Of a stretch of 34,764 nt of DNA, positions 2,707 through 34,079 are shown piece by piece (the first letter of the stretch is position 1; each line of letters opens with the position of its first letter). The notes under the pieces were generated by a model. It was not told the DNA's origin. It did not search any database and was given only the letters and a program-made list of their open reading frames with translations. The position numbers and the translations under genes are program-made. Origin of the DNA: a virus (Duplodnaviria > Heunggongvirae > Uroviricota > Caudoviricetes); IMG/VR virus record IMGVR_UViG_2671180568_000001, one strand, 5' to 3'.

Positions 2707-5136
2707 TTAGTCATGCATCATGCTTGCGCGGGCTTTGGCGCGCTTCTCGCGCTCATACTTTTCTAATGCATCCTGCAAATCATTACCCAACCGATCTCCC
2801 GGCATACCATTGCCCGGCACGGTGATTTGATAGATTGGCCGACTCTGGTCGATGTAGGTTTTACCGGCGGGTGCCGTGACCGGCTGATAGCTGTTGTATG
2901 CGCTGATTGCCGGGCTGTAACCGTTCTGCGTCGCTGCATTGGCTTTCGCCGCTGTCTGGTCAAGTGAGCTGGATTCTTTGTTGATAATGCCGAGTTTTTC
3001 GAGCACCCAGTCAATCCCGCTTCGCAGCTTGTTAAAGGCGTTAAGCGGCATCAGCAGCGCATCGGCCAGCGTCTGACCGAACATAACCCCAACATCACGA
3101 CAACTGTTGAGCGTGTCCTGAGTCGCTTTCACCGGCGCTATCAGGTCTTTAAACCACTGCCAGACGCCGCGAAGTTTTTCGCCGAGACCGTCGAAAATGG
3201 GTGCCAGCGGGGCGAACATTTCCCCGACCGGCGCAAAGGCACTCATGAGCCCCTCGACCACACCGGCAAAGAATGCGCTGACAGGCTCCCAGTATTTACG
3301 GATAAGCAGCGCGCCAGCGACAACAGCCGCCGCTACCGCCACGACAGGCCACGTAATAGCACCAATAGCCGCAATGACCCCGCCACTGATTGTCGTAAAG
3401 ACCGCACCAAGCGCACCAGCCGCCGAAATGATGGCGTTAATGCCAGTAATTACCGGCCACGATACAAGGCCAATGGCACCAATCATCCCCACAATACCGA
3501 CAGCTGCCGCCGTAATGACACCCAGCGTGGTGGCAAGAGATTTGTTCTTTTGGATCCAGCTATCGAGCCTCAATACATACCCTGTCGTCGTTTGTACCAG
3601 CTTTCTTAATGATGACTCTTGCTGGTCAAACAGGTCGGTTCCTACCGCTTCATACGCAGACTGAAACTCTTTAAAATCGCCGCCGAGGTTATCCTGCATG
3701 ACCTTCACCAGCTCAGCGGTTTTGCCATCCGATGCTTTAAGGGAAGCGGTAAGCTGGTCTAATTTCCCGCTCGAGGCAGCGGTCATGAGTACCGCAGCCG
3801 ACGAGCTGGCCTCTTCACCGAAAATGGTTTTCATATATTCGGCACGCTGGCCGGTGCCGAGGTTGTTTTTATCAAAACTCCGCTGCATTTCTTTCAGGAT
3901 GGTAAATATTGGACGTGTGTTCCCCTTACCATCAGCCGTTTTGACGCCGAGCTCTTTAATGGCGTCATACGCTTTGCCCGTTGGAGCCTGCAGGCGACTT
4001 AATACGGCACGGCTCCCCGTACCCGCCATCGATCCCGTAATTTTGGCGTCATGCAGTGCGCCGACCATTGCGGCTGTTTCTTCGATGCTGACCCCGGCAT
4101 TTTTCGCCACCGGCGCGGCATAAGTCAGCGCATCACTCAGGCCGTCAAAGTCGGCGGCGGTTTTGTTCATCGTCATCGACAGAACATCACCGATATGGGC
4201 GACCTTATCGTTTGAAAGCTGGAAGGCAGAGCGCATCCCCATCAATAACCCGGCGTTCTCTTCCATCGTTCGACGGTTTGCGAGCGCCATATCGAGTGTT
4301 ACGGGGGTAGCGGCCTGAATAGCCGCAGCATCGCCGCCAGCCTTTGCAATAATAATCTGAGCACCGGCAGCATCATCAGCCGACGCGGCGGTGTTGTCAC
4401 CGAGCTGGCGCGCCTGTTTGCGGAGCGCCACCATATCAGCTGAGTCTTTACCGACACCGAGAACGGCCTGTAACTCAGAGTTTTTCTGAGCAAAATCATA
4501 ACCGGGCTTCATCAGTGCAACACCGGCAAGCGCTCCGGTCGTTGCCATGCCTATCCCGGCAGCGCCCATCGATGCCGCATTTCCAGCCAGTGCCTTTCCT
4601 GCCTGATAGCGTTTTTGTACTGCGCTGAGTTTTGCCTGTTGCGCGCTGACCCGCGCCAGTGCTTCATGCTGGCGGTTAAGTTGTGCGGTAGTTTCATTGA
4701 TAGAGTTTTTCAGGCGGCTTTCATCATTCGACAGATTGCGCGTATTAATCCCCGCTTTGCCGAGCTCGGTCTGTTGCCGCTTCACCGATTGGGTGAGGCT
4801 GTTATATTTTGCCTGTAACCCTTCAGCCGAACGCTTTGCTGATTCCAGCACTCTGGCCTGTGCCGCCGTTGGCCGTTCCGTGTTTTTAAACTGCACCGCC
4901 AGCTCGGCGGCTTCCTGTTTTGCCTTTTCCAGTGCCTGTCCGGTTACCGCCAGTTGTGCGCTGGTTTTGCGAAAACCGTCGATTTTCGATGCCTGACCAT
5001 TCAAATCACGCAGGGATTGCTGAGTCGTGCGGATATCGCCAGACAGCGATTTGCTCGCCGTCTGGATCGCTTTAAAGGGTCGGGTCGCCTGGTCGACAGC
5101 TTTCAGCAGCACTTCGAGTTTGAGGTTATTACTCAT
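2707..5136 (-). CDS. T: tail tape measure protein T
   Basis: 809-aa Ala/Gly/Gln-rich protein with coiled-coil N-terminus and hydrophobic Gly-rich segments, downstream of E/E'. Confidence 0.9.
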   Translation of the reverse strand: MSNNLKLEVLLKAVDQATRPFKAIQTASKSLSGDIRTTQQSLRDLNGQASKIDGFRKTSAQLAVTGQALEKAKQEAAELAVQFKNTERPTAAQARVLESAKRSAEGLQAKYNSLTQSVKRQQTELGKAGINTRNLSNDESRLKNSINETTAQLNRQHEALARVSAQQAKLSAVQKRYQAGKALAGNAASMGAAGIGMATTGALAGVALMKPGYDFAQKNSELQAVLGVGKDSADMVALRKQARQLGDNTAASADDAAGAQIIIAKAGGDAAAIQAATPVTLDMALANRRTMEENAGLLMGMRSAFQLSNDKVAHIGDVLSMTMNKTAADFDGLSDALTYAAPVAKNAGVSIEETAAMVGALHDAKITGSMAGTGSRAVLSRLQAPTGKAYDAIKELGVKTADGKGNTRPIFTILKEMQRSFDKNNLGTGQRAEYMKTIFGEEASSSAAVLMTAASSGKLDQLTASLKASDGKTAELVKVMQDNLGGDFKEFQSAYEAVGTDLFDQQESSLRKLVQTTTGYVLRLDSWIQKNKSLATTLGVITAAAVGIVGMIGAIGLVSWPVITGINAIISAAGALGAVFTTISGGVIAAIGAITWPVVAVAAAVVAGALLIRKYWEPVSAFFAGVVEGLMSAFAPVGEMFAPLAPIFDGLGEKLRGVWQWFKDLIAPVKATQDTLNSCRDVGVMFGQTLADALLMPLNAFNKLRSGIDWVLEKLGIINKESSSLDQTAAKANAATQNGYSPAISAYNSYQPVTAPAGKTYIDQSRPIYQITVPGNGMPGDRLGNDLQDALEKYEREKRAKARASMMHD

Positions 5137-5562
5137 TCGTGTTTCCGCTTCGCTGTAGCGCTTTTTCGCGCCAGTTGACGAGTTCGGTCAGGCTCATGGG
5201 ATACAGGTCTGATGGCGACCAGTGGAAAATTACCGCTATGTCAGCCATCAGGTCATCGACCGAGAGTTTTTGCGGGAAGGTTACGCCGCCTAACTCGGTG
5301 ACAAAAAACCGACCACCTTACCGGCAAACGACAGCAGGTCGGGCAGCTCCAGTGCGGCGGCTTCCTGCTCGGTCAGCGACGGCATGGTCATGCGCGGCAG
5401 CACTTTAATCAGCGCATCGACGTCAGAGTTTGCGACAGATGCCAGGCTGACACCGCGAAGGGTTCCGGCACACGGTTTTAACAGGGTGACGTCGGTAATA
5501 ACCTGCTCACCGCGCTTAATGGGTTTAATCAGAGTGACGATATTTTCGTTAGTTTTATCCAT
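5129..5562 (-). CDS. tail assembly chaperone E+E' made by programmed -1 frameshift at T_TTT_TTG (minus strand, plus coordinates 5302-5308)
   Basis: Heptamer is in zero-frame register GGT-TTT-TTG; the -1 frame hand-translated stays open to TAA at 5129-5131, overlapping the T start as in P2. Confidence 0.7.
5290..5562 (-). CDS. E: tail assembly chaperone E
   Basis: 90-aa ORF ending ...AGKVVGFLSPS upstream of T; carries the slippery heptamer near its 3' end. Confidence 0.85.
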   Translation of the reverse strand: MDKTNENIVTLIKPIKRGEQVITDVTLLKPCAGTLRGVSLASVANSDVDALIKVLPRMTMPSLTEQEAAALELPDLLSFAGKVVGFLSPS

Positions 5563-5624
5563 GATATTTCTCGTTAAATTCTGGTTTCAGGATGCCCGGC
5601 CAGCCATGCTGACCGGGGCATAAA

Positions 5625-6143
5625 TTACAGGCCGATATTTTGTCGGTGCGCCTCGAGCATGTCGGTGCCGTTCACTTTTTCGATGAGGTTCACGGTGTCG
5701 ATTTCCACCAGTTCCGAGCCATTCATCGTCAGCTTGAAATAGGTACACGCGAGAGCGATTTTCGACTCGGTGTCTTCGCCCTGTTTGGCTTCACCGAGGT
5801 CGATTTCTTTCTGACGGCCACGGAGAACAACCTCAACCGGCACGGTCTCGCCGGTGTCATCACGCTGGTAAGACCCGGCAAAACGTAGCGGTACGGAGGC
5901 CGCGCCGGTGGCAGCGTATAACGACCAGATAGCGTCATCGGGGAAGCCGCCGAGAGAGATTTCAGCCGACAGCGCATCGTCATCGAGGCCGAGGTCGACC
6001 GGTGCCGAACCATTCATCCCGCCGCCGCGATAGTTCTCGAGCTTGCGGGTTAATTTCGGCAGCGTGACGGACTGCACGACGCCGAGATAACTCACCCCAT
6101 CGATAAACAGGTTCATGAGTTTGAGCTTGCGCGGTAATGCCAT
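5625..6143 (-). CDS. FII: tail tube protein FII
   Basis: 172-aa ORF after FI, P2 gpFII-like. Confidence 0.9.
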   Translation of the reverse strand: MALPRKLKLMNLFIDGVSYLGVVQSVTLPKLTRKLENYRGGGMNGSAPVDLGLDDDALSAEISLGGFPDDAIWSLYAATGAASVPLRFAGSYQRDDTGETVPVEVVLRGRQKEIDLGEAKQGEDTESKIALACTYFKLTMNGSELVEIDTVNLIEKVNGTDMLEAHRQNIGL

Positions 6144-6155
6144 TTGTCAGGCTCC

Positions 6156-7343
6156 TTATTTGCTGTTGACGGACGAGATAAGATTCGCCAGATATTTATC
6201 AGTAATGCGCTGGCGTAAGGTCAGGTGTTCGAGTGGCGGCACCGGCGTATAGTCATAATCGATAAACAGTTTCCCGGCTTTCAGGGTTTCTTTACTGTTG
6301 GCCTCTTCGTCAAACCAGCACGTCGCATCGATGATGTAACCGCCGGTTTTCAGCTCGCGGAATTTCGCGTTGATGCCGTCGATAATGTCGCGAATCAACG
6401 TCGCGGTGATGGGCTTATCGTTCGCCCACATATGCCCCTCGGCTATTGTGTCGGCTATGACCTGTGCGGTGCGGGTGTAGTTCTCAAACTGAAACAGCGG
6501 GTCATCGGAGCAATTACGGTTACCCCAGAAGCGGAAACCATCGGCACGAATCAGCGTCGTAACACCGGCCTCATTCAGCAGGTCGGCATCAGTGCCAGAT
6601 TCCTGCAAATCCCAGAAGACCGACGCACTGATACCGGTGACGCCATTGATGCCGACGTTTGACAGGGTTTTATGCCAGCCTGTGTCATTGTCGATTTTTG
6701 CGCGCAGTCCCAACGCGATCGCTGTTGCATAACTGGTTGTGGTCGCGTTGGCCGTGGTATCCCACCCGAGGAAGTCAGGCCAGATAATCATGAGCTCACG
6801 GGCGCTGAAGTTTTCGCGGTAGGCGATAACGTCAGCAATGGTTTTACAGCCCCACGCGCTGACATAGGCGAAAGCGCGCAGCTTCTGAGCCACGGAGACA
6901 AGCGCGGTCGCCACCTCCTGAGTATCGAGCCCCGGCACACCGAGAATACGTGGCTTCACGCCGGTGACCGCTTTCGCCGTTAACAGCGCTTTCATCCCGG
7001 TATATTTGCCATTCTCATCCGTGGTGCCGATGATGTTAGAAATGGTTTGCGCCTGTGCCTCTTCGCCGTCGCCGGTACCCTCCGCGACACGCACAACAAC
7101 GACAACCGGTTTTGACTGGTTAGCGATGAGCTGTAAGGATTTTGCCAGGGTACCTTTAGTACCGGCTTTTGCGATGGCGCTTTGTGGGTTGGTAATCAGC
7201 ACCGGCTCATTGAGAGGGAAAGCCCCGGCGTCAGCATCACTGGCTGTGCAGACCATGCCAACGACCGCCGTTGATACCGTCGAGATTGTGCGGGTGCCGT
7301 CGTTAATTTCGACGACCTCGACACCGTGATGATAATCACTCAT
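6156..7343 (-). CDS. FI: contractile tail sheath protein FI
   Basis: 395-aa ORF starting MSDYHHGVEVVEINDGTRTIST, P2 gpFI-like. Confidence 0.92.
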   Translation of the reverse strand: MSDYHHGVEVVEINDGTRTISTVSTAVVGMVCTASDADAGAFPLNEPVLITNPQSAIAKAGTKGTLAKSLQLIANQSKPVVVVVRVAEGTGDGEEAQAQTISNIIGTTDENGKYTGMKALLTAKAVTGVKPRILGVPGLDTQEVATALVSVAQKLRAFAYVSAWGCKTIADVIAYRENFSARELMIIWPDFLGWDTTANATTTSYATAIALGLRAKIDNDTGWHKTLSNVGINGVTGISASVFWDLQESGTDADLLNEAGVTTLIRADGFRFWGNRNCSDDPLFQFENYTRTAQVIADTIAEGHMWANDKPITATLIRDIIDGINAKFRELKTGGYIIDATCWFDEEANSKETLKAGKLFIDYDYTPVPPLEHLTLRQRITDKYLANLISSVNSK

Positions 7344-7407
7344 CCGTTTAACTCCGTTAGTTGAGGTGAGTGATATTGTCTGGTTTACGCCTGTATGCGG
7401 CTATTTG

Positions 7408-7986
7408 TCAGGGTTCGCCGGTGGCTGACACAACGGGATTTGTCGCCGGAAATTTTTTATACAGCGTCGATATGCCCACATCAAAAATCAGTGCAACACG
7501 CTGTCGGGATTCTCCGGCCGCAATCAACCGGCCAGCCTGAGCCCATTCATCAGGCGTCAGCTTCGGCCTACGACCTCCGATCCTGCCTTGTGCCCGGGCT
7601 GCATCCAGCCCGGCGCGGGTTCGTTCGACGATTAACTCGCGTTCCATTTCTGCAAGAGCGCCCATGATGTGAAAGAAAAATCGCCCCATCGGGGTTGAGG
7701 TATCAATACTGTCGGTCAGGCTTCTGAAATTAACCCCTCGCTGGCGAAGCTCTTCAGTCATAGAGACAAGATGGCGCATGCTACGCCCGAGCCTGTCGAG
7801 CTTCCAGACAACGAGAGTATCACCGGCATTAAGTTGCCTGAGTGCGCGATTTAACCCTGGCCTGTTTGTCGATTTACCGCTGATTTTATCCTCGAAAATT
7901 AGCTCACATCCCGACCGTTCCAGCGCGTCACGCTGTAGCGCGGTATTTTGTTCATTTGTTGATACGCGCACATAGCCAACCTGCAT
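7408..7986 (-). CDS. serine recombinase, Hin/Gin/Cin/Pin-type DNA invertase
   Basis: N-terminus [13 protein letters not shown]... with catalytic-Ser context and a C-terminal HTH; GAGGG RBS before ATG at 7986 (ORF track uses an upstream TTG). Sits next to a hix-like site. Confidence 0.88.
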
Positions 7987-8040
7987 TTGTTTTCCCTCAT
8001 GCAAAAGCCCAAATGATGCCAGCTAGGGGGGAAAACTACA

Positions 8041-8066
8041 TTTTCTTAAACGTTGGTTTAGGAGAA
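8041..8066. other. hix/gix-like 26-bp crossover site (invertase-proximal): TTTTCTTAAACG-TT-GGTTTAGGAGAA
   Basis: Imperfect dyad of 12-bp half-sites around a central TT; the palindrome-arm identity begins exactly at the central dinucleotide (8053). Confidence 0.6.
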
Positions 8067-8405
8067 GCGGCTAAAAGGAATGTAGGGACAGGGGCAAATC
8101 AGATACCTGATATGGGTAGCTTCACGCTTTCTGTTTCAGGTACTGGATATCAAAAATTACCATCAGGTTTTATTCTTCAGTGGGGCTCAATCGGCGCACC
8201 AGGCATTGCACAGGATGTAGTAACCCATTTCCCGATTGCATTTCCAAACAGATGTCTGCGTGTTTTGGTCTCACAAGACTACACACCAGATAGCGGGGCT
8301 GTTGGTTATATTGCCTGTGCAGGTTTTAGTCCCGACCCGGTTAAATTTATATCCAGAGCCAGTACTCCTGGCCTCGGCGCTTCATTTTTAGCGTTAGGCT
8401 GTTAA
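8053..8405 (+). CDS. tail-fibre variable C-terminal cassette Hv1, promoterless mirror copy
   Basis: Encodes the same residues as the C-terminus of H (...[16 protein letters not shown]...LALGC); begins at the crossover site with no start codon of its own. Confidence 0.5.
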
Positions 8406-8426
8406 TTTAGCTATATGGAGTGAAAA

Positions 8427-8867
8427 ATGAATTACATATATTCCGTGACTACAAACTCTTTCTATCCGCTGGAGATGAAAGAGGATTACACTCAAGCTGA
8501 CTCATGGCCAGATGATGCTGTTGAAGTTGATGAGCAAGCGTATATTGAGTTTTCCGGATTACCGCCGAAAGGAAAAATCCGTATCGCTGGAGAAAATGGT
8601 TTTCCTGCATGGTCTGAAATTCCACCACCAACACATGAGGAACAGATTGCTGCAGCCGAACTGGAAAAGCAGCAACTGATTAATCAGGCCAACGATTATA
8701 TGAACAGTAAACAATGGCCTGGTAAAGCGGCTATTGGTCGCCTGAAAGGTGAGGAACTGGCGCAATATAATTTGTGGCTGGATTATCTGGACGCACTGGA
8801 ACTGGTCGATACCTCCAGTGCTCCAGATATTGAATGGCCTACGCCTCCGGCAGTTCAGGCCAGATGA
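8427..8867 (+). CDS. tail fibre assembly protein Tfa1, mirror copy
   Basis: 146-aa ORF identical in translation to 10936..11376. Confidence 0.55.
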   Translation: MNYIYSVTTNSFYPLEMKEDYTQADSWPDDAVEVDEQAYIEFSGLPPKGKIRIAGENGFPAWSEIPPPTHEEQIAAAELEKQQLINQANDYMNSKQWPGKAAIGRLKGEELAQYNLWLDYLDALELVDTSSAPDIEWPTPPAVQAR

Positions 8868-9441
8868 CATCCGGCGCGGTGCTGGTATCTGTTGCCGTCA
8901 CCGCGTCAATGTAATCCAGCACGGCGTTAAGTCGGGTTGTTTCTGCCTGCGTCAACTTCCGTCCGGCCTGTAATTTCAGCTGAATCAGACTAATGGAAGC
9001 CATTGCTGCATCAATCAGTGACTGGCGCTGTGCTTCTGCCGCGTCTACTGCGGCACTATGCTGTGCCTCAGTATCCGTCACCCATTTCTCACCATCCCAT
9101 TTATCATATGGCGTTAACGGGGCGATAGTGGTTGTATTTTCAGGGTAATCACCCGGAGCTGTGATTTCTTTCGATTCTCCTGTTTCGGTGCTATAGATGA
9201 TTTCACCGCGATGGTCTGGCACATATTCCCATGAGTTAAAATCTGCAGAACGGCAGATTGCATAACCAGCTTTATGTGTAACTGGTGCATCTAAACAAGA
9301 ACATGCCGGGATACCGACGCCAACCGCAAGATATTCAGTTGATGTGGAAATATATTCCCGCGTTTCACCATCATAATTATAAATGGTAATGTCTCCCGCT
9401 TTTATGGCAATGAGTTCGTTATTTAATACGGCTTTATTCAT
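8839..9441 (-). CDS. tail fibre assembly protein Tfa2, mirror copy
   Basis: 200-aa ORF identical in translation to 10362..10964. Confidence 0.55.
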   Translation of the reverse strand: MNKAVLNNELIAIKAGDITIYNYDGETREYISTSTEYLAVGVGIPACSCLDAPVTHKAGYAICRSADFNSWEYVPDHRGEIIYSTETGESKEITAPGDYPENTTTIAPLTPYDKWDGEKWVTDTEAQHSAAVDAAEAQRQSLIDAAMASISLIQLKLQAGRKLTQAETTRLNAVLDYIDAVTATDTSTAPDVIWPELPEA

Positions 9442-9891
9442 CAGGCAGCCCTCACGATATAATTAAAGGCAATGTTACGAGGTCGGTTTTCGTTTGCAGT
9501 TGGAACAACTCTGGAAGCATCGAATGTTACTCGCTTTGCATAACCACCTTTAATTGAATCAGATGAAGCATCTCCGATGACGCTGGTTGTAAAAACGCCA
9601 GAATCAGAAGGGTAGGTATTAAACCTGACATCCACTAATGCACCAATTATATTTCGAATGGCATCTCCCTGTGACGAAAGCAAGCTACGGTTAGTATCTA
9701 TTCCTCTTCCGTCATCCCAGCCACGAATGAACTCACCACGTAAATCAGGCAATTTATTTGTCGGGTAAGCCTTTGCCAGTTCCGGGTATTCTTCAGCAGA
9801 AAAAGCCGCACCGTTGCATTTCAGCCAGCCTGTTGGCGGAGTGGCGGAAGGCCACGGAACAGGCACACCAACGGGTAATGCCGAACCTTCT
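9441..9891 (-). CDS. alternative tail-fibre C-terminal cassette Hv2, mirror copy, running into the N gap
   Basis: Same protein as 9902..10362; ends ...RNIAFNYIVRAA. Confidence 0.45.
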
Positions 9892-9901
9892 NNNNNNNNN
9901 N
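9892..9901. other. run of 10 N (assembly gap) beside the palindrome axis
   Basis: Literal N characters; the mirror positions 9902-9911 read ttggtttggg. Confidence 0.99.
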
Positions 9902-10362
9902 TTGGTTTGGGAGAAGGTTCGGCATTACCCGTTGGTGTGCCTGTTCCGTGGCCTTCCGCCACTCCGCCAACAGGCTGGCTGAAATGCAACGGTGCGGCTT
10001 TTTCTGCTGAAGAATACCCGGAACTGGCAAAGGCTTACCCGACAAATAAATTGCCTGATTTACGTGGTGAGTTCATTCGTGGCTGGGATGACGGAAGAGG
10101 AATAGATACTAACCGTAGCTTGCTTTCGTCACAGGGAGATGCCATTCGAAATATAATTGGTGCATTAGTGGATGTCAGGTTTAATACCTACCCTTCTGAT
10201 TCTGGCGTTTTTACAACCAGCGTCATCGGAGATGCTTCATCTGATTCAATTAAAGGTGGTTATGCAAAGCGAGTAACATTCGATGCTTCCAGAGTTGTTC
10301 CAACTGCAAACGAAAACCGACCTCGTAACATTGCCTTTAATTATATCGTGAGGGCTGCCTGA
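9902..10362 (+). CDS. alternative tail-fibre C-terminal cassette Hv2 (receptor-binding tip, promoterless)
   Basis: Begins with the crossover-site peptide GLGE; the C-terminal NIAFNYIVRAA matches the conserved end of P2/Mu-type fibre tips as recalled. Confidence 0.55.
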
Positions 10363-10964
10363 TGAATAAAGCCGTATTAAATAACGAACTCATTGCCATA
10401 AAAGCGGGAGACATTACCATTTATAATTATGATGGTGAAACGCGGGAATATATTTCCACATCAACTGAATATCTTGCGGTTGGCGTCGGTATCCCGGCAT
10501 GTTCTTGTTTAGATGCACCAGTTACACATAAAGCTGGTTATGCAATCTGCCGTTCTGCAGATTTTAACTCATGGGAATATGTGCCAGACCATCGCGGTGA
10601 AATCATCTATAGCACCGAAACAGGAGAATCGAAAGAAATCACAGCTCCGGGTGATTACCCTGAAAATACAACCACTATCGCCCCGTTAACGCCATATGAT
10701 AAATGGGATGGTGAGAAATGGGTGACGGATACTGAGGCACAGCATAGTGCCGCAGTAGACGCGGCAGAAGCACAGCGCCAGTCACTGATTGATGCAGCAA
10801 TGGCTTCCATTAGTCTGATTCAGCTGAAATTACAGGCCGGACGGAAGTTGACGCAGGCAGAAACAACCCGACTTAACGCCGTGCTGGATTACATTGACGC
10901 GGTGACGGCAACAGATACCAGCACCGCGCCGGATGTCATCTGGCCTGAACTGCCGGAGGCGTAG
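10362..10964 (+). CDS. tail fibre assembly protein Tfa2, cognate chaperone of Hv2
   Basis: 200-aa ORF overlapping the Hv2 stop (ATGA); C-terminal ...APDVIWPELPEA typical of Tfa/gpG-like chaperones. Confidence 0.7.
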   Translation: MNKAVLNNELIAIKAGDITIYNYDGETREYISTSTEYLAVGVGIPACSCLDAPVTHKAGYAICRSADFNSWEYVPDHRGEIIYSTETGESKEITAPGDYPENTTTIAPLTPYDKWDGEKWVTDTEAQHSAAVDAAEAQRQSLIDAAMASISLIQLKLQAGRKLTQAETTRLNAVLDYIDAVTATDTSTAPDVIWPELPEA

Positions 10965-11376
10965 GCCATTCAATATCTGGAGCACTGGAGGTATCGACCA
11001 GTTCCAGTGCGTCCAGATAATCCAGCCACAAATTATATTGCGCCAGTTCCTCACCTTTCAGGCGACCAATAGCCGCTTTACCAGGCCATTGTTTACTGTT
11101 CATATAATCGTTGGCCTGATTAATCAGTTGCTGCTTTTCCAGTTCGGCTGCAGCAATCTGTTCCTCATGTGTTGGTGGTGGAATTTCAGACCATGCAGGA
11201 AAACCATTTTCTCCAGCGATACGGATTTTTCCTTTCGGCGGTAATCCGGAAAACTCAATATACGCTTGCTCATCAACTTCAACAGCATCATCTGGCCATG
11301 AGTCAGCTTGAGTGTAATCCTCTTTCATCTCCAGCGGATAGAAAGAGTTTGTAGTCACGGAATATATGTAATTCAT
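10936..11376 (-). CDS. tail fibre assembly protein Tfa1 (gpG-like), cognate chaperone of the expressed fibre
   Basis: 146-aa ORF directly downstream of H; C-terminal ...APDIEWPTPPAVQAR. Confidence 0.8.
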   Translation of the reverse strand: MNYIYSVTTNSFYPLEMKEDYTQADSWPDDAVEVDEQAYIEFSGLPPKGKIRIAGENGFPAWSEIPPPTHEEQIAAAELEKQQLINQANDYMNSKQWPGKAAIGRLKGEELAQYNLWLDYLDALELVDTSSAPDIEWPTPPAVQAR

Positions 11377-11397
11377 TTTTCACTCCATATAGCTAAA

Positions 11398-12357
11398 TTA
11401 ACAGCCTAACGCTAAAAATGAAGCGCCGAGGCCAGGAGTACTGGCTCTGGATATAAATTTAACCGGGTCGGGACTAAAACCTGCACAGGCAATATAACCA
11501 ACAGCCCCGCTATCTGGTGTGTAGTCTTGTGAGACCAAAACACGCAGACATCTGTTTGGAAATGCAATCGGGAAATGGGTTACTACATCCTGTGCAATGC
11601 CTGGTGCGCCGATTGAGCCCCACTGAAGAATAAAACCTGATGGTAATTTTTGATATCCAGTACCTGAAACAGAAAGCGTGAAGCTACCCATATCAGGTAT
11701 CTGATTTGCCCCTGTCCCTACATTCCTTTTAGCCGCTTCTCCTAAACCAAGGTTTTTGAGAACCTCAGCAACCAATCCGGCGTCGGCCATTTCTTTTAGT
11801 GCGTTCGCAATCAGCGGGTATTGCTTATGCGGGTTAGCCTTTGCCTCATGATCTTTCATGAGTTTGTCGGCGTAGCTCTTCACCTCGATGACTGCATCGT
11901 CGACATATTTACGGGTTGCCAGCACGACTGACGGGTCGATTTTTAAGGTGATCGCCGAAGTGCTCGAGACAACGAGAATCATGCGAATGGTCTGCGTTCG
12001 GCCGCTCCCCTCAGCCAGTAACGGTTTATAGGTTTCCGGGCAGTTGGCGACAGCAATCAGGATACCTTCATCATCGTAAAGACCGATTTCGCGGATAAAG
12101 AAACCGCCCTCGTTTTCCGGGATGATCTGCTCGGCAATAATCTGACCGGTGTCGTTAGCATCTACTGCCAGTGAATTTAGCAGCTCGCGGCGACGCTCGT
12201 TAATGAGCTTTGTCTGAGCCGGGTCAGGTGTCGGCAGTGTGCCGTTTCCGTCCCCGACGGCCATTTGTGTAATATTCAGTTTAGTACCGAGTGCGGTCGC
12301 GTTTGCCAGTCGCGCCGCGCCCTGATGGGTCAGAATGGCAAAATATTTAGTCGTCAT
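11398..12357 (-). CDS. H: tail fibre protein H (constant N-terminal part fused to cassette Hv1)
   Basis: 319-aa ORF with P2 gpH-like N-terminus ([22 protein letters not shown]...MAVGDGNG); its C-terminus is duplicated at 8053..8405. Confidence 0.85.
11737..11762. other. hix/gix-like 26-bp crossover site inside H (minus strand TTCTCAAAAACC-TT-GGTTTAGGAGAA)
   Basis: Dyad half-sites; encodes [10 protein letters not shown] at the constant/variable junction of H; the palindrome arm ends at its central dinucleotide (11750). Confidence 0.6.
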
Positions 12358-12965
12358 GCGCTTACTCGCAGGTTATCAATCAGATGAATGGCCGAAGCCG
12401 GACAAAACTCACCACCGACGACAATCTCCCCGGAGGCATAGGGATATACGGTTAACAGGTCGCCGTCGTAGCAGCTTGCGCCCACATAAGCGCGCCCGGT
12501 GGTGCTCAGGCTGATAGCGAGCCCGGTCAGGTGTCGGCTTGCCGGTTTTGCCCCTTCAATAAGGCGCTCGAGCTCGAGATACATCTCATCGGTGATGCCG
12601 GTCTCGAGTACGCCAACCACAAGCCGGAAAGTTCCCGGCTCTTCGTTGAGCTCCCACCACTCTTTAACCTCAATCAGATAGCCCAGCGGCTCCACCACGC
12701 GCCGTAATGCGGCGATGGTGCCTTTGTGGGCATGAACATAAAATGCGGAGGCGATAACGCTGCGTTTTGTGGCCTCCGGCCATCTCTCATCCCACCGGTC
12801 AACCGAAAATGCCCACGCCAGATACGGCAGCAGCCGCACCGGGCAAGTGCGCCAGTTCCACAACGTGCGAAGCGGTACCGGCACACGCTCAATATCTGCG
12901 GCCGCGCGGGCGGCGGCGACCTCGAGCAGCGATGAGCCAACAGGCAACAGTCGCTTATTACTCAT
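12354..12965 (-). CDS. I: baseplate assembly protein I
   Basis: Start chosen at [26 protein letters not shown] (ATG at 12965, overlapping the J stop); the ORF-track 244-aa form is an N-terminal extension. Confidence 0.85.
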
Positions 12966-13866
12966 CGGCCCCCCCGTCAGCGATGTGGTATTCGGTGCAA
13001 CAGGATGCCTGGTATTTACTGAGCACAATGTCAGCCAGTGGCGCGGCGAGTTCGACACGCTGCACACCTTCGACATGCAGGGCGGCATAGATGGCCGACT
13101 GACGAATGTCCCGGCCCAGTCGCTGTTGTGCGCTGATGTATGCCTTCAGTTTTTCCTCTGCGGCCTGACGGATTGGCTCGGCCTCCGGCCCCGGATAAAA
13201 ATACAGAGTTGCATCAATCTGATACGGCACGATTTCAGCACTCTGCACCGTCACCCTGTCGCCAACCGGGCGCACCTCTTCAGCATTTAGTGCTTTTTCA
13301 ACGATGGTCAGAAGCTCATCGGATGCGGTGCCGTCATCCTCGCGTGACAGCACGGTGATGGTCACACAGGCCGGTGACGGGCTGACAACCGAGATATCAG
13401 CGACCCGACCGTCGGCGCTGCGACCGTGGTATTCATATGCGCCGACCGGACCAGCCACGCTGAGCCCTTCATAAGCCTGTTGTGCGCGTAACCGTAAATC
13501 GGTATCAGATTCCATGACGGCGGGTGTCGGCGGGATAGTGCTGTCATCGGCGGGCGTCACAATCTGTCGCGCGGTGTTGTTGTTTCCGGCCATCACATCA
13601 AGGTCGTTATTACTCGCATAAGCCAGTGTGCAGCCTTTCGCCGCATCGTTTACACGCTGACGCCAGATAACCTCCCGATAGGCGTTTTCCTCCAGATACT
13701 TCACCAGTGGCTCAGACTCAAGGGCGAGAGTACGCGCAACAGCGTCCTGTTGTTCTTCAGGGTAAAGCGAGACCAGCGTCGCTTTGCGTTCCGCGAGAAT
13801 AGTCTCAAAATCCAGCGTTTCCACGACGTCAGGCGCGGGGAGCTGGCTCAGGTCGATGTTTGCCAT
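12958..13866 (-). CDS. J: baseplate assembly protein J
   Basis: 302-aa ORF MANIDLSQLPAPDVVETLDFETILAERKA..., P2 gpJ-like. Confidence 0.9.
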   Translation of the reverse strand: MANIDLSQLPAPDVVETLDFETILAERKATLVSLYPEEQQDAVARTLALESEPLVKYLEENAYREVIWRQRVNDAAKGCTLAYASNNDLDVMAGNNNTARQIVTPADDSTIPPTPAVMESDTDLRLRAQQAYEGLSVAGPVGAYEYHGRSADGRVADISVVSPSPACVTITVLSREDDGTASDELLTIVEKALNAEEVRPVGDRVTVQSAEIVPYQIDATLYFYPGPEAEPIRQAAEEKLKAYISAQQRLGRDIRQSAIYAALHVEGVQRVELAAPLADIVLSKYQASCCTEYHIADGGADE

Positions 13867-14932: not shown

Positions 14933-16276
14933 CTAGCTTGGGGTAACTGTAACCTGACGAGAAAAAACAACAGGCTCCTTCAATTGCTCACATATAATTT
15001 TAAAATTAATAACTCCAGAGCCAATCGTTAAGGGAATGATGACTATTTCCTCATACTCAACAGTTAAGCTCTGTAACACTTTTTTCGCACGCAACGTGAT
15101 TTTATGGTCCTCTTTCATGACCCACTCATCTTGGTTAACTGTTCCTAAATCAGCCATCCGTTTAATTATTGCTGGCACTTCGAAATGAGGTTTAGCCATT
15201 ACCATCGATGTATCATCAAAAATACCCATCCTAAAATTTTCGAGTGACATTATAGCACTGAGTCTTTTTTTATGCTTACTTATTGGGGACTCAGGGATTT
15301 TTAATTTCGGCTCTTTTATAAATAAGTCTTCATTAGAACCTTTAAGCACTATTAGGAATTCAGGAAAATCAATCTCAACATAAACATTTGACGCAAAAGT
15401 CCTCCCATTATTTCTTAAAACGGGCTTCACTGTAATTGCATTGTTTTTGTAATTACAGTGCAATCTCATTTTTTTATTATATAAATCCACATCTTTATCA
15501 GTAGGCAGTGAAGAGTTATATGATTCAATCTCATCAATGGTGATAGTGTCCTTCAACTCAAGAGGTACCGCTTCCTTGCATAGTTGTGGAAGGTAATCCT
15601 GATAAGTCGACTCCACATCCACCGTCAAAGCTAAGTCATTATCAATCATGCTCAGCTCTAATTGAGGTGCATCGCTATGTAATTGGCTTTCATATTCGCG
15701 GACTTTTTCCCTTAATTTTCTATTTTCATTAGATAGCTCAGCCAACTCGGCGGTAATCTCTTTAGATGCGACCTGGTCACCGCGCACCCATCCTATTCGT
15801 GGATTTCGTCGCATTACTTTTGGTAAGGCGATAGCAACCTTCGTCGCTAACTCATCAATTGTCTCCCAAAAATCACACATTTTGTTAGCTTTAGCTTTTT
15901 CAATAAAAGCATTTAGTTGCTTTTCTTTTTGAGGGTCACTTTCTCGTTCATGTGGTTTTGTTAAAACGTCCCTCCCTCTAATAAAAGCCAACACCGGTAT
16001 ATTTAATGATTTAGCATAGTTATATTCCATTTCAGTATAGCTAATACCATCTTTAGAAACGGACCCATACTTATGCCCAATGATAATCACATAATAATCA
16101 CTAGCATCAATAGTCTCCTTTATTATATCCCACTGCTCAGAGTCATCAGCGCTAAACATCTCCATGCCAACTGGAAAGTGGTATAAACTAAGGACCGTTT
16201 CTATGATTTTTTTGCGAGCATCAATTAAATCGACGTATGTAGAGCTCACAAATACTTGATATTTTTTATTTTCCAT
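14933..16276 (-). CDS. cargo protein with DUF4062-like N-terminal domain and uncharacterised C-terminal region; candidate single-gene defence factor
   Basis: AT-rich 447-aa ORF between S and V; N-terminal motifs YQVFVSSTYVDL..ARKK, HFPVGMEMF, YYVIIIGHKYGS as recalled for DUF4062; AGGA RBS before ATG at 16276. Confidence 0.75.
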   Translation of the reverse strand: MENKKYQVFVSSTYVDLIDARKKIIETVLSLYHFPVGMEMFSADDSEQWDIIKETIDASDYYVIIIGHKYGSVSKDGISYTEMEYNYAKSLNIPVLAFIRGRDVLTKPHERESDPQKEKQLNAFIEKAKANKMCDFWETIDELATKVAIALPKVMRRNPRIGWVRGDQVASKEITAELAELSNENRKLREKVREYESQLHSDAPQLELSMIDNDLALTVDVESTYQDYLPQLCKEAVPLELKDTITIDEIESYNSSLPTDKDVDLYNKKMRLHCNYKNNAITVKPVLRNNGRTFASNVYVEIDFPEFLIVLKGSNEDLFIKEPKLKIPESPISKHKKRLSAIMSLENFRMGIFDDTSMVMAKPHFEVPAIIKRMADLGTVNQDEWVMKEDHKITLRAKKVLQSLTVEYEEIVIIPLTIGSGVINFKIICEQLKEPVVFSRQVTVTPS

Positions 16277-16313
16277 AACATCCTCACTTGTATAGAAAAT
16301 AAAATACATAAAA

Positions 16314-16781
16314 TCAATCAATAGATCTAGCCGCCTCAGCTAAAGAAACCATAATTATGTCATGAATCATATTTTTTGATTCATGATCAAACCCGATAAG
16401 CATTCGGGCGTCATACTGTACCGGCGCACTGTTTCGCCCAGGCTTATCTTTGAGACCGTACTGATGCACATTCGCCATCCGTTGTACCTTGCCGGTAAAT
16501 TCCACGACCGCCGAGTCATTCCCCGCTGTGGCTTTCATAAAGCGACTGGTGCGGAGCTTAGCGAACATTTCCCGCTTAACCCGGCCTGTTTTGGCTTTTA
16601 CCGGCTGGCGTTTTCGGGCGGCGTAAGGTGTCCCGTCCGGGGCTTTCTGCATTTTAATCCGGCGCTGTTGACGGGCTCGCAGGGTCTTAGCGATATCTGC
16701 GGCCATTCTGCGACGGGCGGCAGGAGACAGCGCTGCTATCAGCCCCGTGAGCGTATCGTCAAAGGGTTTAAAGTCATTCAT
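16314..16781 (-). CDS. S: tail completion protein S
   Basis: 155-aa ORF downstream of R, P2 gpS-like. Confidence 0.85.
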   Translation of the reverse strand: MNDFKPFDDTLTGLIAALSPAARRRMAADIAKTLRARQQRRIKMQKAPDGTPYAARKRQPVKAKTGRVKREMFAKLRTSRFMKATAGNDSAVVEFTGKVQRMANVHQYGLKDKPGRNSAPVQYDARMLIGFDHESKNMIHDIIMVSLAEAARSID

Positions 16782-25145: not shown

Positions 25146-25832
25146 TTATTGCTTATCTTGTGGTGGTGGAACCTCTTTTTCTAAATTATCTACATACTCT
25201 CTAATATTGAATGCTTTGTTTTTCCTTATTTCGGTAGTGTTAACCTTACTAACACCATCACGAATGTTTTTATTTATGGTGTCTATTAATTTTTGTCTTT
25301 CTTGTTCTGTTTTTATTATTTCACTTAAGAATGACTTTGCGTTTCTTGAAATGTCCGTCTGTCTATTAATGAATAGTATCGCATACACTGAAAAAACCAA
25401 GCAAGTAGTCGTTAGTGCGGAATTAAAAAATACCCCATAATAAACATTAACTTTTGTTATTGACGCTGATAACGTTAGTGATATCAAAAAAAACAAAATC
25501 AGGGTAAAAATATATGCAATGGTTACTTTGTTTTTAGTGGTGTCAAGAATGTATGAAGTTCTTTGATCATCAAAGTAATCCTTTATCCTTGATGGAGTGT
25601 TTGCGGGGAGTTCTAACTCCTTTATTTTATCATCAGCATCAATTAGTCGCTTAAACATGAGGCTAATGATTACGGCGCTAAAGACAGAGATCCCCTTTGA
25701 AATTATAGGATCGAAATCAATTAAAAATGAGTATTTTGAATAAACAAAAACAATAACAAAACCACATATAAGCCCAATTACAATTGAGCTTGCTATGTTT
25801 TTTGCATATGTTTGTAACGTATTGTTTATCAT
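25146..25832 (-). CDS. cargo membrane protein (four predicted TM helices plus charged C-terminal tail); candidate effector of a two-gene module
   Basis: AT-rich 228-aa ORF with four hydrophobic ~20-aa segments; start ATG overlaps the upstream gene stop (ATGA). Confidence 0.7.
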   Translation of the reverse strand: MINNTLQTYAKNIASSIVIGLICGFVIVFVYSKYSFLIDFDPIISKGISVFSAVIISLMFKRLIDADDKIKELELPANTPSRIKDYFDDQRTSYILDTTKNKVTIAYIFTLILFFLISLTLSASITKVNVYYGVFFNSALTTTCLVFSVYAILFINRQTDISRNAKSFLSEIIKTEQERQKLIDTINKNIRDGVSKVNTTEIRKNKAFNIREYVDNLEKEVPPPQDKQ

Positions 25833-26812
25833 GGGTTAATTACTCCGGTGTCTAGTAAGCGCAATAACCATGAAATCATTTCTTCAGCAACGTTGTCAGC
25901 AATTAGCATTCCATTGCTGTATTCAATATTAACTGAATCCTTTAGTTGAATCTCATCATTCCTGAGTATTCCTGCACCTTTTAACTCAATTGTTAAGCTT
26001 TCATCTCTATTATCAACCAAGCCTTGTGTAATTTTACGCAACATGTCTTGCTCAGACTCGCTTGCTTTATATTTATACCCAATGGAAATATCAATTGATA
26101 GAGATTCCCTGTCAGGTGAACCATCATTTAAAATGGCATTTTTCTTCATTTCATTAATTCGATGTTCACCTACGAGCGTTTTTAATAGCTCACTAGCTGT
26201 ATCATCAATATTATTTCCATAGTAGGTTAAAGGCAGCTTTAAGCTAACATTTTTTACTATGTTACGTTTTAAAAAATCCGTATTTAGAGACAGGTTGTTT
26301 GCCTGTAAAACGATGAAGTTATCATCAGTAATAGATAGGTTGTCTTGTAGTATGAAATTTATATAATTTTCAATATCTTTTATTCTAATAGATCTGCTTT
26401 GCAGAATTATGAAGTGGTTCTTAATCACACCAATGTATGCAATGCTTTCTAAATACTCTCTAGCATTCCCACTTGATAAATTTAATGTCTCGTATGTTAA
26501 AGCTGTTTTAGCATAATCGCTAACAGAGAAAACAGGAATGCTACTACCCGGTTCAATATAGACAATTTCCGCAAAAAACATTCCATGAATTTCTTTGCTA
26601 TTTGAAAGAACCATGTGGGCGTGAGCAGCGACATTACCATTATTATCTGGAACATCAGGGAAGAATAATCTATCAGCAACATTTGGAACCTTGATTTTCA
26701 CAAGGTTTGCCAACCTATCTTGCAGGTTTGATGTTAAAAGAGCATCCTTTTTAGGAAGCATTATTGCATGGCGATAATGCAGCATTTTACTCTTATAATC
26801 TTGCGTTGCCAT
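25829..26812 (-). CDS. cargo soluble protein, uncharacterised; candidate sensor partner of the membrane protein
   Basis: AT-rich 327-aa ORF with no TM segments; AGAGGGA RBS before ATG at 26812; no motif recognised by eye. Confidence 0.7.
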   Translation of the reverse strand: MATQDYKSKMLHYRHAIMLPKKDALLTSNLQDRLANLVKIKVPNVADRLFFPDVPDNNGNVAAHAHMVLSNSKEIHGMFFAEIVYIEPGSSIPVFSVSDYAKTALTYETLNLSSGNAREYLESIAYIGVIKNHFIILQSRSIRIKDIENYINFILQDNLSITDDNFIVLQANNLSLNTDFLKRNIVKNVSLKLPLTYYGNNIDDTASELLKTLVGEHRINEMKKNAILNDGSPDRESLSIDISIGYKYKASESEQDMLRKITQGLVDNRDESLTIELKGAGILRNDEIQLKDSVNIEYSNGMLIADNVAEEMISWLLRLLDTGVINP

Positions 26813-32122: not shown

Positions 32123-33160
32123 ATGAGTGTTAAAAAACTGACATCGGGTGAATGGCTTTGTGATTTCCGCGTCGACGGGGCTGAAAGTCGCCGCGTGCGT
32201 AAGAAGTTTTCAACCAAAGGTGAAGCCGTTGCCTTCGAGCAGTATTACCGAGAAGAGGCACAAAATAAGCCGTGGATGGGTGAGAAGGAAGACCGTCGAC
32301 GTTTGAGTGAACTGATTGAGCTGTGGCATAACCTCCATGGCCAGTCGCTCGCTGCCAGCAAATCGCGATTGGCCAAACTGCACATTGTTTGCCGGGGTCT
32401 TGGCGACCCAATCGCTACCCAGCTTACCGCCAAAGATTTCGCCCATTATCGGGATAAACGTCTCAAGGGTGAAATCGACAATGGCTATCACGCAAATTCT
32501 GAAAAGTGGATTGCGAAACCTGTGACTGTGAACCGGGAACAACAGTACCTCGAAGCTGTTTTCAATGAGCTGAAGCGCTTGGGTGAGTGGAGTCTGCCAA
32601 ATCCTCTCGAAGGTGTGCGAGTTTTCAAAGAAGCCGAAAAAGAAATGTCTTGGCTTACCCAGCCTCAAATTCGCGAAGTGCTCAATGCTTGTGAGTCATA
32701 CGGGAAAATTTATTTAACCCGTATCGTCAAAGTGTGCTTAGCGACTGGTGCTCGATGGAGCGAGGCCGAGCGTCTTACTCGTTCACAGCTTTCACCCCAC
32801 AAGTTGACTTTCACTAAAACGAAGGGAAAGAAGAATCGTACAGTACCGATCCCTCGGTGGCTATATGACGAGTTGGCTCCTTTACAGGGAAAAATGTTCC
32901 ACCCCTGCTATCAGGAGTTCAAGAAAATGCTCGCTCTGACCGATATAGAGTTAGCTGAAGGGCAAAAAACGCATGTGTTACGTCATACATTTGCGAGTCA
33001 CTTTATGATGAATGGTGGGAACATTTTAGTACTGCAACGAATCTTGGGCCATTCTAACATTAGGGAAACCATGAGATACGCTCATTTTGCACCAGATCAT
33101 TTAGAAGAAGCTGTAACTCTTAACCCTATTTCTAATTTAACAGGATTATATGATGAGTGA
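32123..33160 (+). CDS. int: tyrosine integrase (P2/186 family)
   Basis: 345-aa ORF with C-terminal HVLRHTFASHF...LGHSNIRETMRYAHF catalytic-region pattern. Confidence 0.92.
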   Translation: MSVKKLTSGEWLCDFRVDGAESRRVRKKFSTKGEAVAFEQYYREEAQNKPWMGEKEDRRRLSELIELWHNLHGQSLAASKSRLAKLHIVCRGLGDPIATQLTAKDFAHYRDKRLKGEIDNGYHANSEKWIAKPVTVNREQQYLEAVFNELKRLGEWSLPNPLEGVRVFKEAEKEMSWLTQPQIREVLNACESYGKIYLTRIVKVCLATGARWSEAERLTRSQLSPHKLTFTKTKGKKNRTVPIPRWLYDELAPLQGKMFHPCYQEFKKMLALTDIELAEGQKTHVLRHTFASHFMMNGGNILVLQRILGHSNIRETMRYAHFAPDHLEEAVTLNPISNLTGLYDE

Positions 33161-34079
33161 GCCAACCATCGAAACACCTCCAAGAATGACCGAGGCCAAA
33201 GTCATTAGGGTACGCACTCGTGGTTTTTATAATTTAGTTGAGATAGGTGCAGTCTTTCTAGTTGCAAATGTAATTTTTGCTACAGGGATATTAGACTCAA
33301 CCTTTTATTATTTATTTCCCAGTGCGAGAGCAGATCTTACACATTTGCCGAGCTTTATCAGGTCAATATTCGCAGTGTCATTTGTAATCGTTTACACCAT
33401 TATCTATGGTGTGTCTCCAATCCAAAGAATGTTTATGAGAATTACAGGGAGTGATTCAGTCGACAAATCATCGATGTTTAATATTGTCGATATTATAAAT
33501 GAGATAAAACTACTCAAGAAGGCTCAAGAGGAAAGGGCTGCTGCTGATGAAGATGAATCTCTGGATTTTTATCTTAAAGGTTTGATTAATAGCTCTGAAG
33601 GTCTTGCGAAAAACATATATTCTCGCGGTAGTCTTTATTTATTAGTCGGTGTTTGTTTTGCAATAGTTGGATTAGGTTTCTTCTATTCTCAATCACATGT
33701 AATTGATGCTAAGGATGATGCGGTAACCAAGGTAATGTATCTTCTCCCTAATTTTGGCGTGTTGATTTTCTTGGAGTTAATCGCATTTTTCTTTTTGAAG
33801 CAATATCGGGTTACGATGGATGAGTTTCGCTATTACGAGGCAATAAAACGTTCACGTGAGGAAAGCTATGCCATTATAAAGCTTGTAATGGCTAGCCAGA
33901 AAGATATCGATATGATAGACCTTCTGGATAAAATTAATTTTAGCTCAAGAGTTGGAAAACTAGAATCAGGGCAGACTACTGAAATTATTGAAGCAAGAAA
34001 ATTAGACAAAAATGAACTTGAAACCTTAGTAAAGCTTACCGAGGCAGTTGCGGGTAAGATTGGACAGGGAAATAAGTAG
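33150..34079 (+). CDS. cargo polytopic membrane protein downstream of int; candidate lysogen-expressed exclusion/defence factor
   Basis: AT-rich 309-aa ORF overlapping the int stop by 11 nt; AGGA RBS; at least four hydrophobic helices and a charged coiled-coil-like C-terminus. Confidence 0.65.
   Translation: MMSEPTIETPPRMTEAKVIRVRTRGFYNLVEIGAVFLVANVIFATGILDSTFYYLFPSARADLTHLPSFIRSIFAVSFVIVYTIIYGVSPIQRMFMRITGSDSVDKSSMFNIVDIINEIKLLKKAQEERAAADEDESLDFYLKGLINSSEGLAKNIYSRGSLYLLVGVCFAIVGLGFFYSQSHVIDAKDDAVTKVMYLLPNFGVLIFLELIAFFFLKQYRVTMDEFRYYEAIKRSREESYAIIKLVMASQKDIDMIDLLDKINFSSRVGKLESGQTTEIIEARKLDKNELETLVKLTEAVAGKIGQGNK

Follow-up and report, generated by a model that had tools for sequence, protein, structure and literature searches.

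Din-type crossover sites very probably bound a single invertible tail-fibre segment, drawn as a duplication in the public assembly, in a P2-like prophage of Escherichia coli PPECC42

The window analysed here is the whole 34,764-nucleotide stretch of an IMG/VR virus record (IMGVR_UViG_2671180568_000001), and its genes are those of a P2-like prophage: ogr, D, tape measure, tube, sheath, baseplate genes V-W-J-I, H, capsid, terminase, A, C and int. The prophage otherwise looks complete. The tail-fibre region runs in the order sheath gene, invertase gene, first crossover site, four cassette genes, a mirror repeat of these in the window, second crossover site, and constant part of the tail-fibre gene H. 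This constant N-terminal part (11751-12357, minus strand; Phage_tail_fib PF12571, 1.1e-61) is promoter-proximal and lies outside the invertible segment. Pfam assignments for the four cassette genes are Hv1 (Gp53-like_C), U1 (Caudo_TAP, 146 aa), U2 (Caudo_TAP, 200 aa) and Hv2 (Collar), such that each fibre tip is followed by its own Caudo_TAP chaperone gene. As written in the window the 1849-bp segment appears twice. Copy 1 (8053-9901, designated orientation B) carries Hv1 and U1 (8427-8867) rightward and U2 (8839-9441) and Hv2 (9441-9891) leftward, its last 10 bases being N, and copy 2 (9902-11750, orientation A) carries Hv2 (9904-10362) and U2 (10362-10964) rightward and U1 (10936-11376) and Hv1 (11398-11748) leftward.

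The serine DNA invertase gene (7408-7986, minus strand; 192 aa, RefSeq WP_001195984.1) follows the sheath gene and is transcribed away from the invertible segment. Its product, searched as a 198-aa open reading frame, matches Resolvase (PF00239, 5.7e-51, residues 9-141) and HTH_7 (PF02796, 1e-12), and is 79%, 75% and 70% identical to e14 Pin, P1 Cin and Mu Gin, respectively; the best solved relative is Gin (3UJ3, E=1e-86, residues 1-183). Substitution of the catalytic serine would mark a dead enzyme, as the preliminary description pointed out, and we find Ser9 retained within YVRVST and invariant with Pin, Cin and Gin, among 117 columns that are invariant across the four proteins. The corresponding catalytic residue is Ser9 in Gin and Ser10 in Hin. 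Also kept are R47, R50 and R153-L154, the last two invariant in the four-way alignment, and these we take to be the counterparts of Hin R48, R51 and R154-L155, on the assumption that Hin numbering is offset by one. In Hin, R154/L155, R48 and R51 contact Fis and the enhancer (PMC3798978). A consensus scan around the invertase start and the adjacent site found no sigma-70-like promoter for the invertase gene.

A recombinational enhancer in the 5' end of the invertase gene had been suspected, and a homologue is present there (7897-7968, minus strand; nt 19-90 of the gene), and is predicted to bind Fis. A gapless alignment with the enhancer that the P1 record places at nt 19-90 of cin shows 82% identity over this interval, compared with 66% for the rest of the gene; all four invertase genes share the blocks GTATCAACAAATGA and GGATGTGA without change. 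Synonymous sites are frozen in six of eight invariant-residue codons within codons 1-12, against eight of 94 within codons 31-180, a comparison that coding constraint confounds, and for the whole enhancer interval against the rest the difference in synonymous freezing gives a Fisher p of 0.03. Din enhancers contain two Fis sites approximately 47-48 bp apart, and candidate Fis 15-mers of the forms G-N13-A/C and G-N13-C are predicted here with centres at nt 29 and nt 78. The Fis site centres of the Hin enhancer are 47 bp apart (PMC3798978). By homology, inversion is likely to depend on Fis and the enhancer.

Both 26-bp sites lie where the preliminary description placed them, and on the strands that it gave. 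The invertase-side site (8041-8066, plus strand) reads TTTTCTTAAACG-TT-GGTTTAGGAGAA, with its outer half at 8041-8052, the core TT at 8053-8054 and the inner half at 8055-8066, and is joined to Hv1 in the window. The H-side site lies inside the tail-fibre gene (11737-11762, minus strand) and reads TTCTCAAAAACC-TT-GGTTTAGGAGAA, with the inner half at 11737-11748, the core at 11749-11750 and the outer half at 11751-11762. Each therefore comprises two 12-bp half sites around a 2-bp core, the two sites are in inverted orientation, and both cores are TT when read from outer to inner half, which is the layout of Din sites. The inner halves are identical and the outer halves differ at 4 of 12 positions, and from the central TT inward the two arms are exact reverse complements (8053-9891 against 9912-11750, 1839/1839 bases), all of which agrees with the initial reading of the sequence. 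A third core and inner half is present at 9902-9915 (TTGGTTTGGGAGAA; core TT and inner half GGTTTGGGAGAA), directly after a run of N. The H-side site encodes a ten-residue stretch of H and the Hv2 cassette opens with GLGE at 9904, again as first described.

To evaluate these matches we used a Din search pattern, TCNNAAACSWWGGTTTNNGA, built from independently known sites and allowing at most two mismatches. It matches only the two sites in 34.8 kb, giving 4 strand-matches where 0.18 are expected, and none of 100 shuffles reached 4. The 14-mer TTGGTTTRGGAGAA occurs three times in the window (8053, 9902, and 11737 on the minus strand) with an expectation of 0.02. With sites matching exactly and counts far above those in shuffled sequence, the occurrences are therefore not due to chance.

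We compared the sites directly with a published table of Din sites (PMC3241671, Table 3), with each site written inner half first. The H-side site, TTCTCC(T/C)AAACC AA GGTTTTTGAGAA, shares 23-24 of 26 bases with pixL, 22 with hixL, 21-22 with cixR and 19-20 with gix. The invertase-side site, with the same inner half and core followed by CGTTTAAGAAAA, shares 24-25 of 26 with pixR, rising to 25 when it carries the Hv2 inner half. The earlier designation of these as hix/gix-like thus holds as far as the 12-2-12 layout of Hin, Gin, Cin and Pin sites is concerned, and it is pixR and pixL of prophage e14, at 23-25 of 26 bases, to which they are closest. The e14 P segment has the repeat TTGGTTTGGGAGAAGG (PMC12529663), and window positions 9902-9917 are identical to it.

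Eight other assemblies encode an identical invertase protein and have differing cassette pairs, and in seven of the eight a site lies equally far from the invertase gene; at the remaining locus (L012) no recognisable site was found with the pattern used. The outer halves are constant across these assemblies and the inner halves follow the cassette, being GGTTTGGGAGAA, GGTTTAGGAGAA, GGTTTAAGAGCA or GGTTTGAAAGAA. The same 192-aa invertase and the same outer half sites are thus found beside at least six cassette pairs (loci L007-L014), with fibres of 319-485 aa. This pattern shows modular exchange of whole cassettes, with the inner half sites varying by 1-3 bases.

One feature that the preliminary description missed is a run of 10 N (9892-9901), which coincides exactly with the apparent palindrome's axis; the window has no other N run. 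Window positions 3013-13405 are identical over 10,393 nt to GenBank CM003707.1 (assembly GCA_001542545.1), the genome of porcine ExPEC strain PPECC42, and because this identity extends across the N run, the gap was already present in the public record. In our reading it marks where two contigs of a scaffolded chromosome were joined. Copy 1 up to the gap (8053-9891) is an exact substring of the complete genome CP022664, in which the next 10 bases are CCCAAACCAA, and copy 2 is an exact substring of the complete genome CP023386. The window can therefore be written as left flank, segment as in CP022664, segment as in CP023386 and right flank, with the last 10 bases of copy 1 (CCCAAACCAA) replaced by N. 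The limits of the copies are exactly the crossover dinucleotides: with its 10 N copy 1 is 1849 bp, and copy 2 starts at the core TT.

The doubled arrangement was sought in 5,426 complete E. coli genomes, and in none of them did cover of window 7300-12400 reach 80%. The highest cover, 64% of this interval at 100% identity, comes with a span of 3252 bp, exactly the 5101 bp of the interval less 1849. Neither IMG/VR nor the GTDB species representatives contain a match to the head-to-head junction GCCGAACCTTCT-N10-TTGGTTTGGGAGAAGGTTCGGC. The premise of a duplicated cassette, from which the preliminary description started, is accordingly not supported, since complete genomes hold a single 1849-bp copy and the record joins its two orientations across 10 N. 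The duplication in the public record is very probably an assembly artefact and the crossover sites are genuine; the apparent site at the axis is the same end of a single segment shown twice. As drawn in the window the segment is a perfect palindrome, so that inverting it would change nothing.

The most economical explanation is that the culture held both orientations at sequencing, that one contig entered the segment from its invertase flank and read it in orientation B while a second entered from the H flank and read it in orientation A, and that the two were then scaffolded across a 10-N gap to create a false 3.7-kb palindrome. We infer such a mixed-orientation culture as the source of the two contigs. 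The 10 N match in number the bases (CCCAAACCAA) that copy 1 lacks, so that both copies are 1849 bp long, and this may be a coincidence with a conventional gap length or may reflect masking of real bases. Breaks of a related kind occur elsewhere. In an independent draft, GCA_042714945.1, a contig ends at ...GCCGAACCTTCTCC, inside the same site, and a Lonsdalea quercina draft breaks 90 bp past the homologous site adjoining its invertase; contig ends at such crossover sites seem to recur as a mark of active inversion. Searched with a strict palindromic pattern of Din type, the GTDB representatives gave 8 loci, of which only two Lonsdalea quercina contigs have an invertase homologue or a partner site; the other loci lack both and look like unrelated palindromes.

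The complete genomes also provide natural inversion variants. An exact inversion of 1835-1849 bp is the only difference between CP023386 (strain 1190) and CP022664 (FORC 064) over 3852 bp, and its breakpoints are confined on both sides to TTGGTTT, which includes the core TT. Orientation A is present in 2 of the 5,426 complete genomes, both 100% identical, and orientation B in 12 at a cover of at least 80%, nine of these being 99.9-100% identical. The proposal that exchange occurs at the central dinucleotide is consistent with these variants. From this comparison of complete genomes, PPECC42 itself aside, inversion appears to occur at this locus and to switch alternative products.

A second kind of variant is seen in EPEC E2348/69 (NC_011601.1, approximately 5125-5155 of locus L006), in which a P2-like remnant stops exactly at the core AA of an H-side-type site and continues in int at window position 32824. 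In the window, int contains a quasi-site in direct orientation at 32810-32835, TTCACTAAAACG AA GGGAAAGAAGAA, and the E2348/69 junction, TTCTCCCAAACC AA GGGAAAGAAGAA, is the product expected of an invertase-mediated deletion. The sequences show an apparent invertase-mediated deletion of approximately 21 kb, from the H-side core to the quasi-site in mid-int. The exchange intervals are TTGGTTT for the inversions and AAGG for the deletion junction; both contain the core and they overlap only near it, and sequence cannot resolve the point to 2 bp. Together, natural inversions and the deletion to a quasi-site place the exchange point at the core without experiment.

In the two orientations different cassettes are fused to the constant part of H. 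Orientation A gives an H of 319 aa in which the ten residues encoded at the site are followed by AAKRNVG..., with a Gp53-like tip, and orientation B gives one of 355 aa in which they are followed by GSALPVG..., with a Collar-domain tip. The 319- and 355-aa forms are annotated RefSeq coding sequences in genomes of opposite orientation and share the same N-terminus, which bears out the initial suggestion that either cassette fuses in frame to the constant part of H. Presumably the two fibre forms have different receptor specificities.

Subunit-rotation chemistry and the invertasome are known for this family from the Hin system (PMC3798978), and by analogy we infer a similar mechanism for this prophage. 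In the real chromosome the two sites would flank just one 1849-bp segment, with Hv1-U1 and Hv2-U2 head to head, each cassette supplying a tail-fibre C-terminus and its assembly chaperone. Invertase dimers, by homology with Hin, Gin and Cin, would bind each 12-2-12 site, and the bound sites would synapse at the enhancer that Fis occupies within the 5' part of the invertase gene. Ser9 would then make 2-nt staggered cuts at the central TT/AA, half of the tetramer would rotate by 180 degrees, and the ends would be religated, so that the constant part of H is continued by Hv1-U1 or by Hv2-U2, yielding fibres of 319 or 355 aa.

We considered three other explanations of the window. The artefact could have arisen without a mixed population if PPECC42 carried two near-identical P2-like prophages with their fibre segments facing opposite ways and the assembly wrongly joined contigs from both. 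E. coli genomes often have several related loci (a median of 2 and up to 14 places per genome), which lends this some credence, but apart from the extra copy the window is colinear from ogr to int with the single prophage of strain 1190 at 99.96% identity, and 11 complete genomes with the exact locus show one full-length match each; we regard a two-prophage origin as improbable. A still smaller chance attaches to the repeats being relics, or substrates of general (RecA) recombination, with the invertase and sites inactive. The failure to find a promoter-like site for the invertase is in keeping with inactivity, but the invertase is intact and retains all of the catalytic and regulatory residues tested, genomes that are 99.9-100% identical at the locus differ only by inversion, and the source assembly itself has junctions of both orientations. 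RecA-mediated inversion is rejected because the identity shared between partner sites, about 7 bp (TTGGTTT) around the core and a few scattered bases, is too short.

The remaining explanation is that PPECC42 has a true 3.7-kb inverted duplication with three crossover sites, forming a larger shufflon. Kilobase perfect palindromes are not known to persist in wild-type E. coli, owing to SbcCD, and a real spacer-less 3.7-kb palindrome would be unstable there. Although the public record shows the palindrome, and multi-site shufflons are known, one type with three repeats from P2-like prophages of EPEC (PMC4272514) and another from p15B Min (PMC3241671), the axis is an N gap, the copies are identical throughout and bounded exactly by the crossover dinucleotides, the arrangement and its junction are absent from the genomes and databases searched, and without a spacer the core at the centre would be 4 bp long (CCAA|TTGG) and would not form a Din site, leaving this the least credible of the three. 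We conclude with high confidence that the 26-bp pair constitutes the crossover sites of a Din-family (Hin/Gin/Cin/Pin) serine invertase system in a P2-like prophage of E. coli PPECC42, that they flank a single 1849-bp segment, and that the palindrome is an artefact.

The invertase side of the segment has a further open reading frame. This orphan ORF (8013-8405, plus strand, 130 aa) has its ATG 40 nt before the core and is in frame with the silent cassette, here Hv1 (Gp53-like_C); RefSeq calls it a gp53-like domain protein in orientation-B genomes. Its start, ATGATGCC (window 8013), is in frame with whichever cassette is silent, giving products of 130 or 166 aa that consist of a 14-aa leader and a receptor-binding tip, with the 166-aa equivalent located at 1014-1514 of locus L001. 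The same ATGATGCC is found at the same distance from the core in e14, and the orphan ORF is 29% identical to e14 StfE2, of which it is a positional analogue. In e14, StfE2 is the product after inversion and blocks T2 adsorption (PMC12529663). By analogy a lysogen might make a free receptor-binding-domain protein (130 or 166 aa; predicted), although we consider this unlikely; if true, the inversion that changes virion host range would, in an intact P2-like prophage, also turn a host-protective adsorption block on or off.

The prophage also carries accessory genes. A gene for a DUF4062 protein (14933-16321, minus strand; 447 aa in RefSeq), a candidate moron with no PADLOC match, separates the tail-completion genes from baseplate gene V. 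P2-like phages often have accessory or defence cargo between the portal gene and the replication region, and here two overlapping genes (25146-25832 and 25829-26812, both minus strand) occupy that position, neither with a Pfam or PADLOC match. Two further genes of unannotated family are at the prophage ends (1-723 and 33150-34079, both plus strand). PADLOC and Pfam searches of five accessory genes of the prophage found only DUF4062.

The false palindrome illustrates that an active invertible segment is able to corrupt a "chromosome-level" public assembly. CM003707.1 is 1.85 kb too long here, with gene calls in duplicate and a 3.7-kb palindrome that is false, and palindromes of this kind that flank N gaps should be taken to indicate phase-variable loci and not genome structure. 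The scaffolding artefact is also an indirect sign that the switch was flipping in the sequenced culture.

Among known systems, Salmonella Hin/hix has the same 26-bp 12-2-12 sites, and the outer half of the H-side site, GGTTTTTGAGAA, is one base different from that of hixL. Hin differs in that the DNA it inverts bears a promoter and contains the hin gene itself, whereas here a coding cassette is swapped and the invertase is outside. The Mu Gin/G segment has the same layout, with the order Sc, gix, Sv-U, U'-S'v, gix and gin pointing outward, and Gin is the best structure match (above), but the Mu core is GA/TC within 34-bp identical repeats and the fibre proteins are different; the G-segment boundaries were taken from the Mu record. 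The P1 Cin/C segment shares the TT/AA core, and its enhancer block CGCGTATCAACAAATGAACAAAA and GGATGTGAGCTAATT are identical to those here; cixL and cixR are marked in the P1 record, which sets the crossover point between the core's two bases. In P1, however, cin points to the C segment, with cixL at the cin 3' end, the segment is 4.2 kb, and the outer half sites are different.

Inversion has been demonstrated experimentally in cultures for e14 and for P2-like prophages of EPEC (PMC4272514), the latter in E2348/69 by read-pair patterns and PCR with clonal cultures (Goldberg et al. 2014, PMC4272514). The E2348/69 locus most like the window (96.8%) is a remnant, and because it has no H-side site it is probably not one of the phase-variable loci of Goldberg et al.

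The closest relative is the Pin/P segment of e14 in E. coli K-12, in which inversion is driven by PinQ, PinR and PinE (PMC12529663). The order is the same (constant fibre part, site, Hv-U, U'-Hv', site and outward-pointing invertase), as are the AA/TT core, the inner repeat TTGGTTTGGGAGAAGG and the position of the start codon 40 nt before the invertase-side core; window U2 and Hv2 are 93% and 61% identical to TfaE and StfE. Cassette 1 has diverged, with Hv1 28% identical to StfP and U1 53% to TfaP, and from core to core the segment is 1849 bp, compared with 1829 bp in e14. The e14 length (K-12, locus L005 1791-3619) agrees with the published figure of 1797 bp, which is 1829 minus two 16-bp repeats. 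Whereas e14 is a lambdoid remnant, the host of the segment described here is a complete-looking P2-like myovirus prophage with sheath, tube, baseplate and capsid genes. Because this is a textbook host-range switch it adds little new biology: it is a tail-fibre switch of an already known kind, a close relative of the e14 P segment carried on a P2-like prophage.
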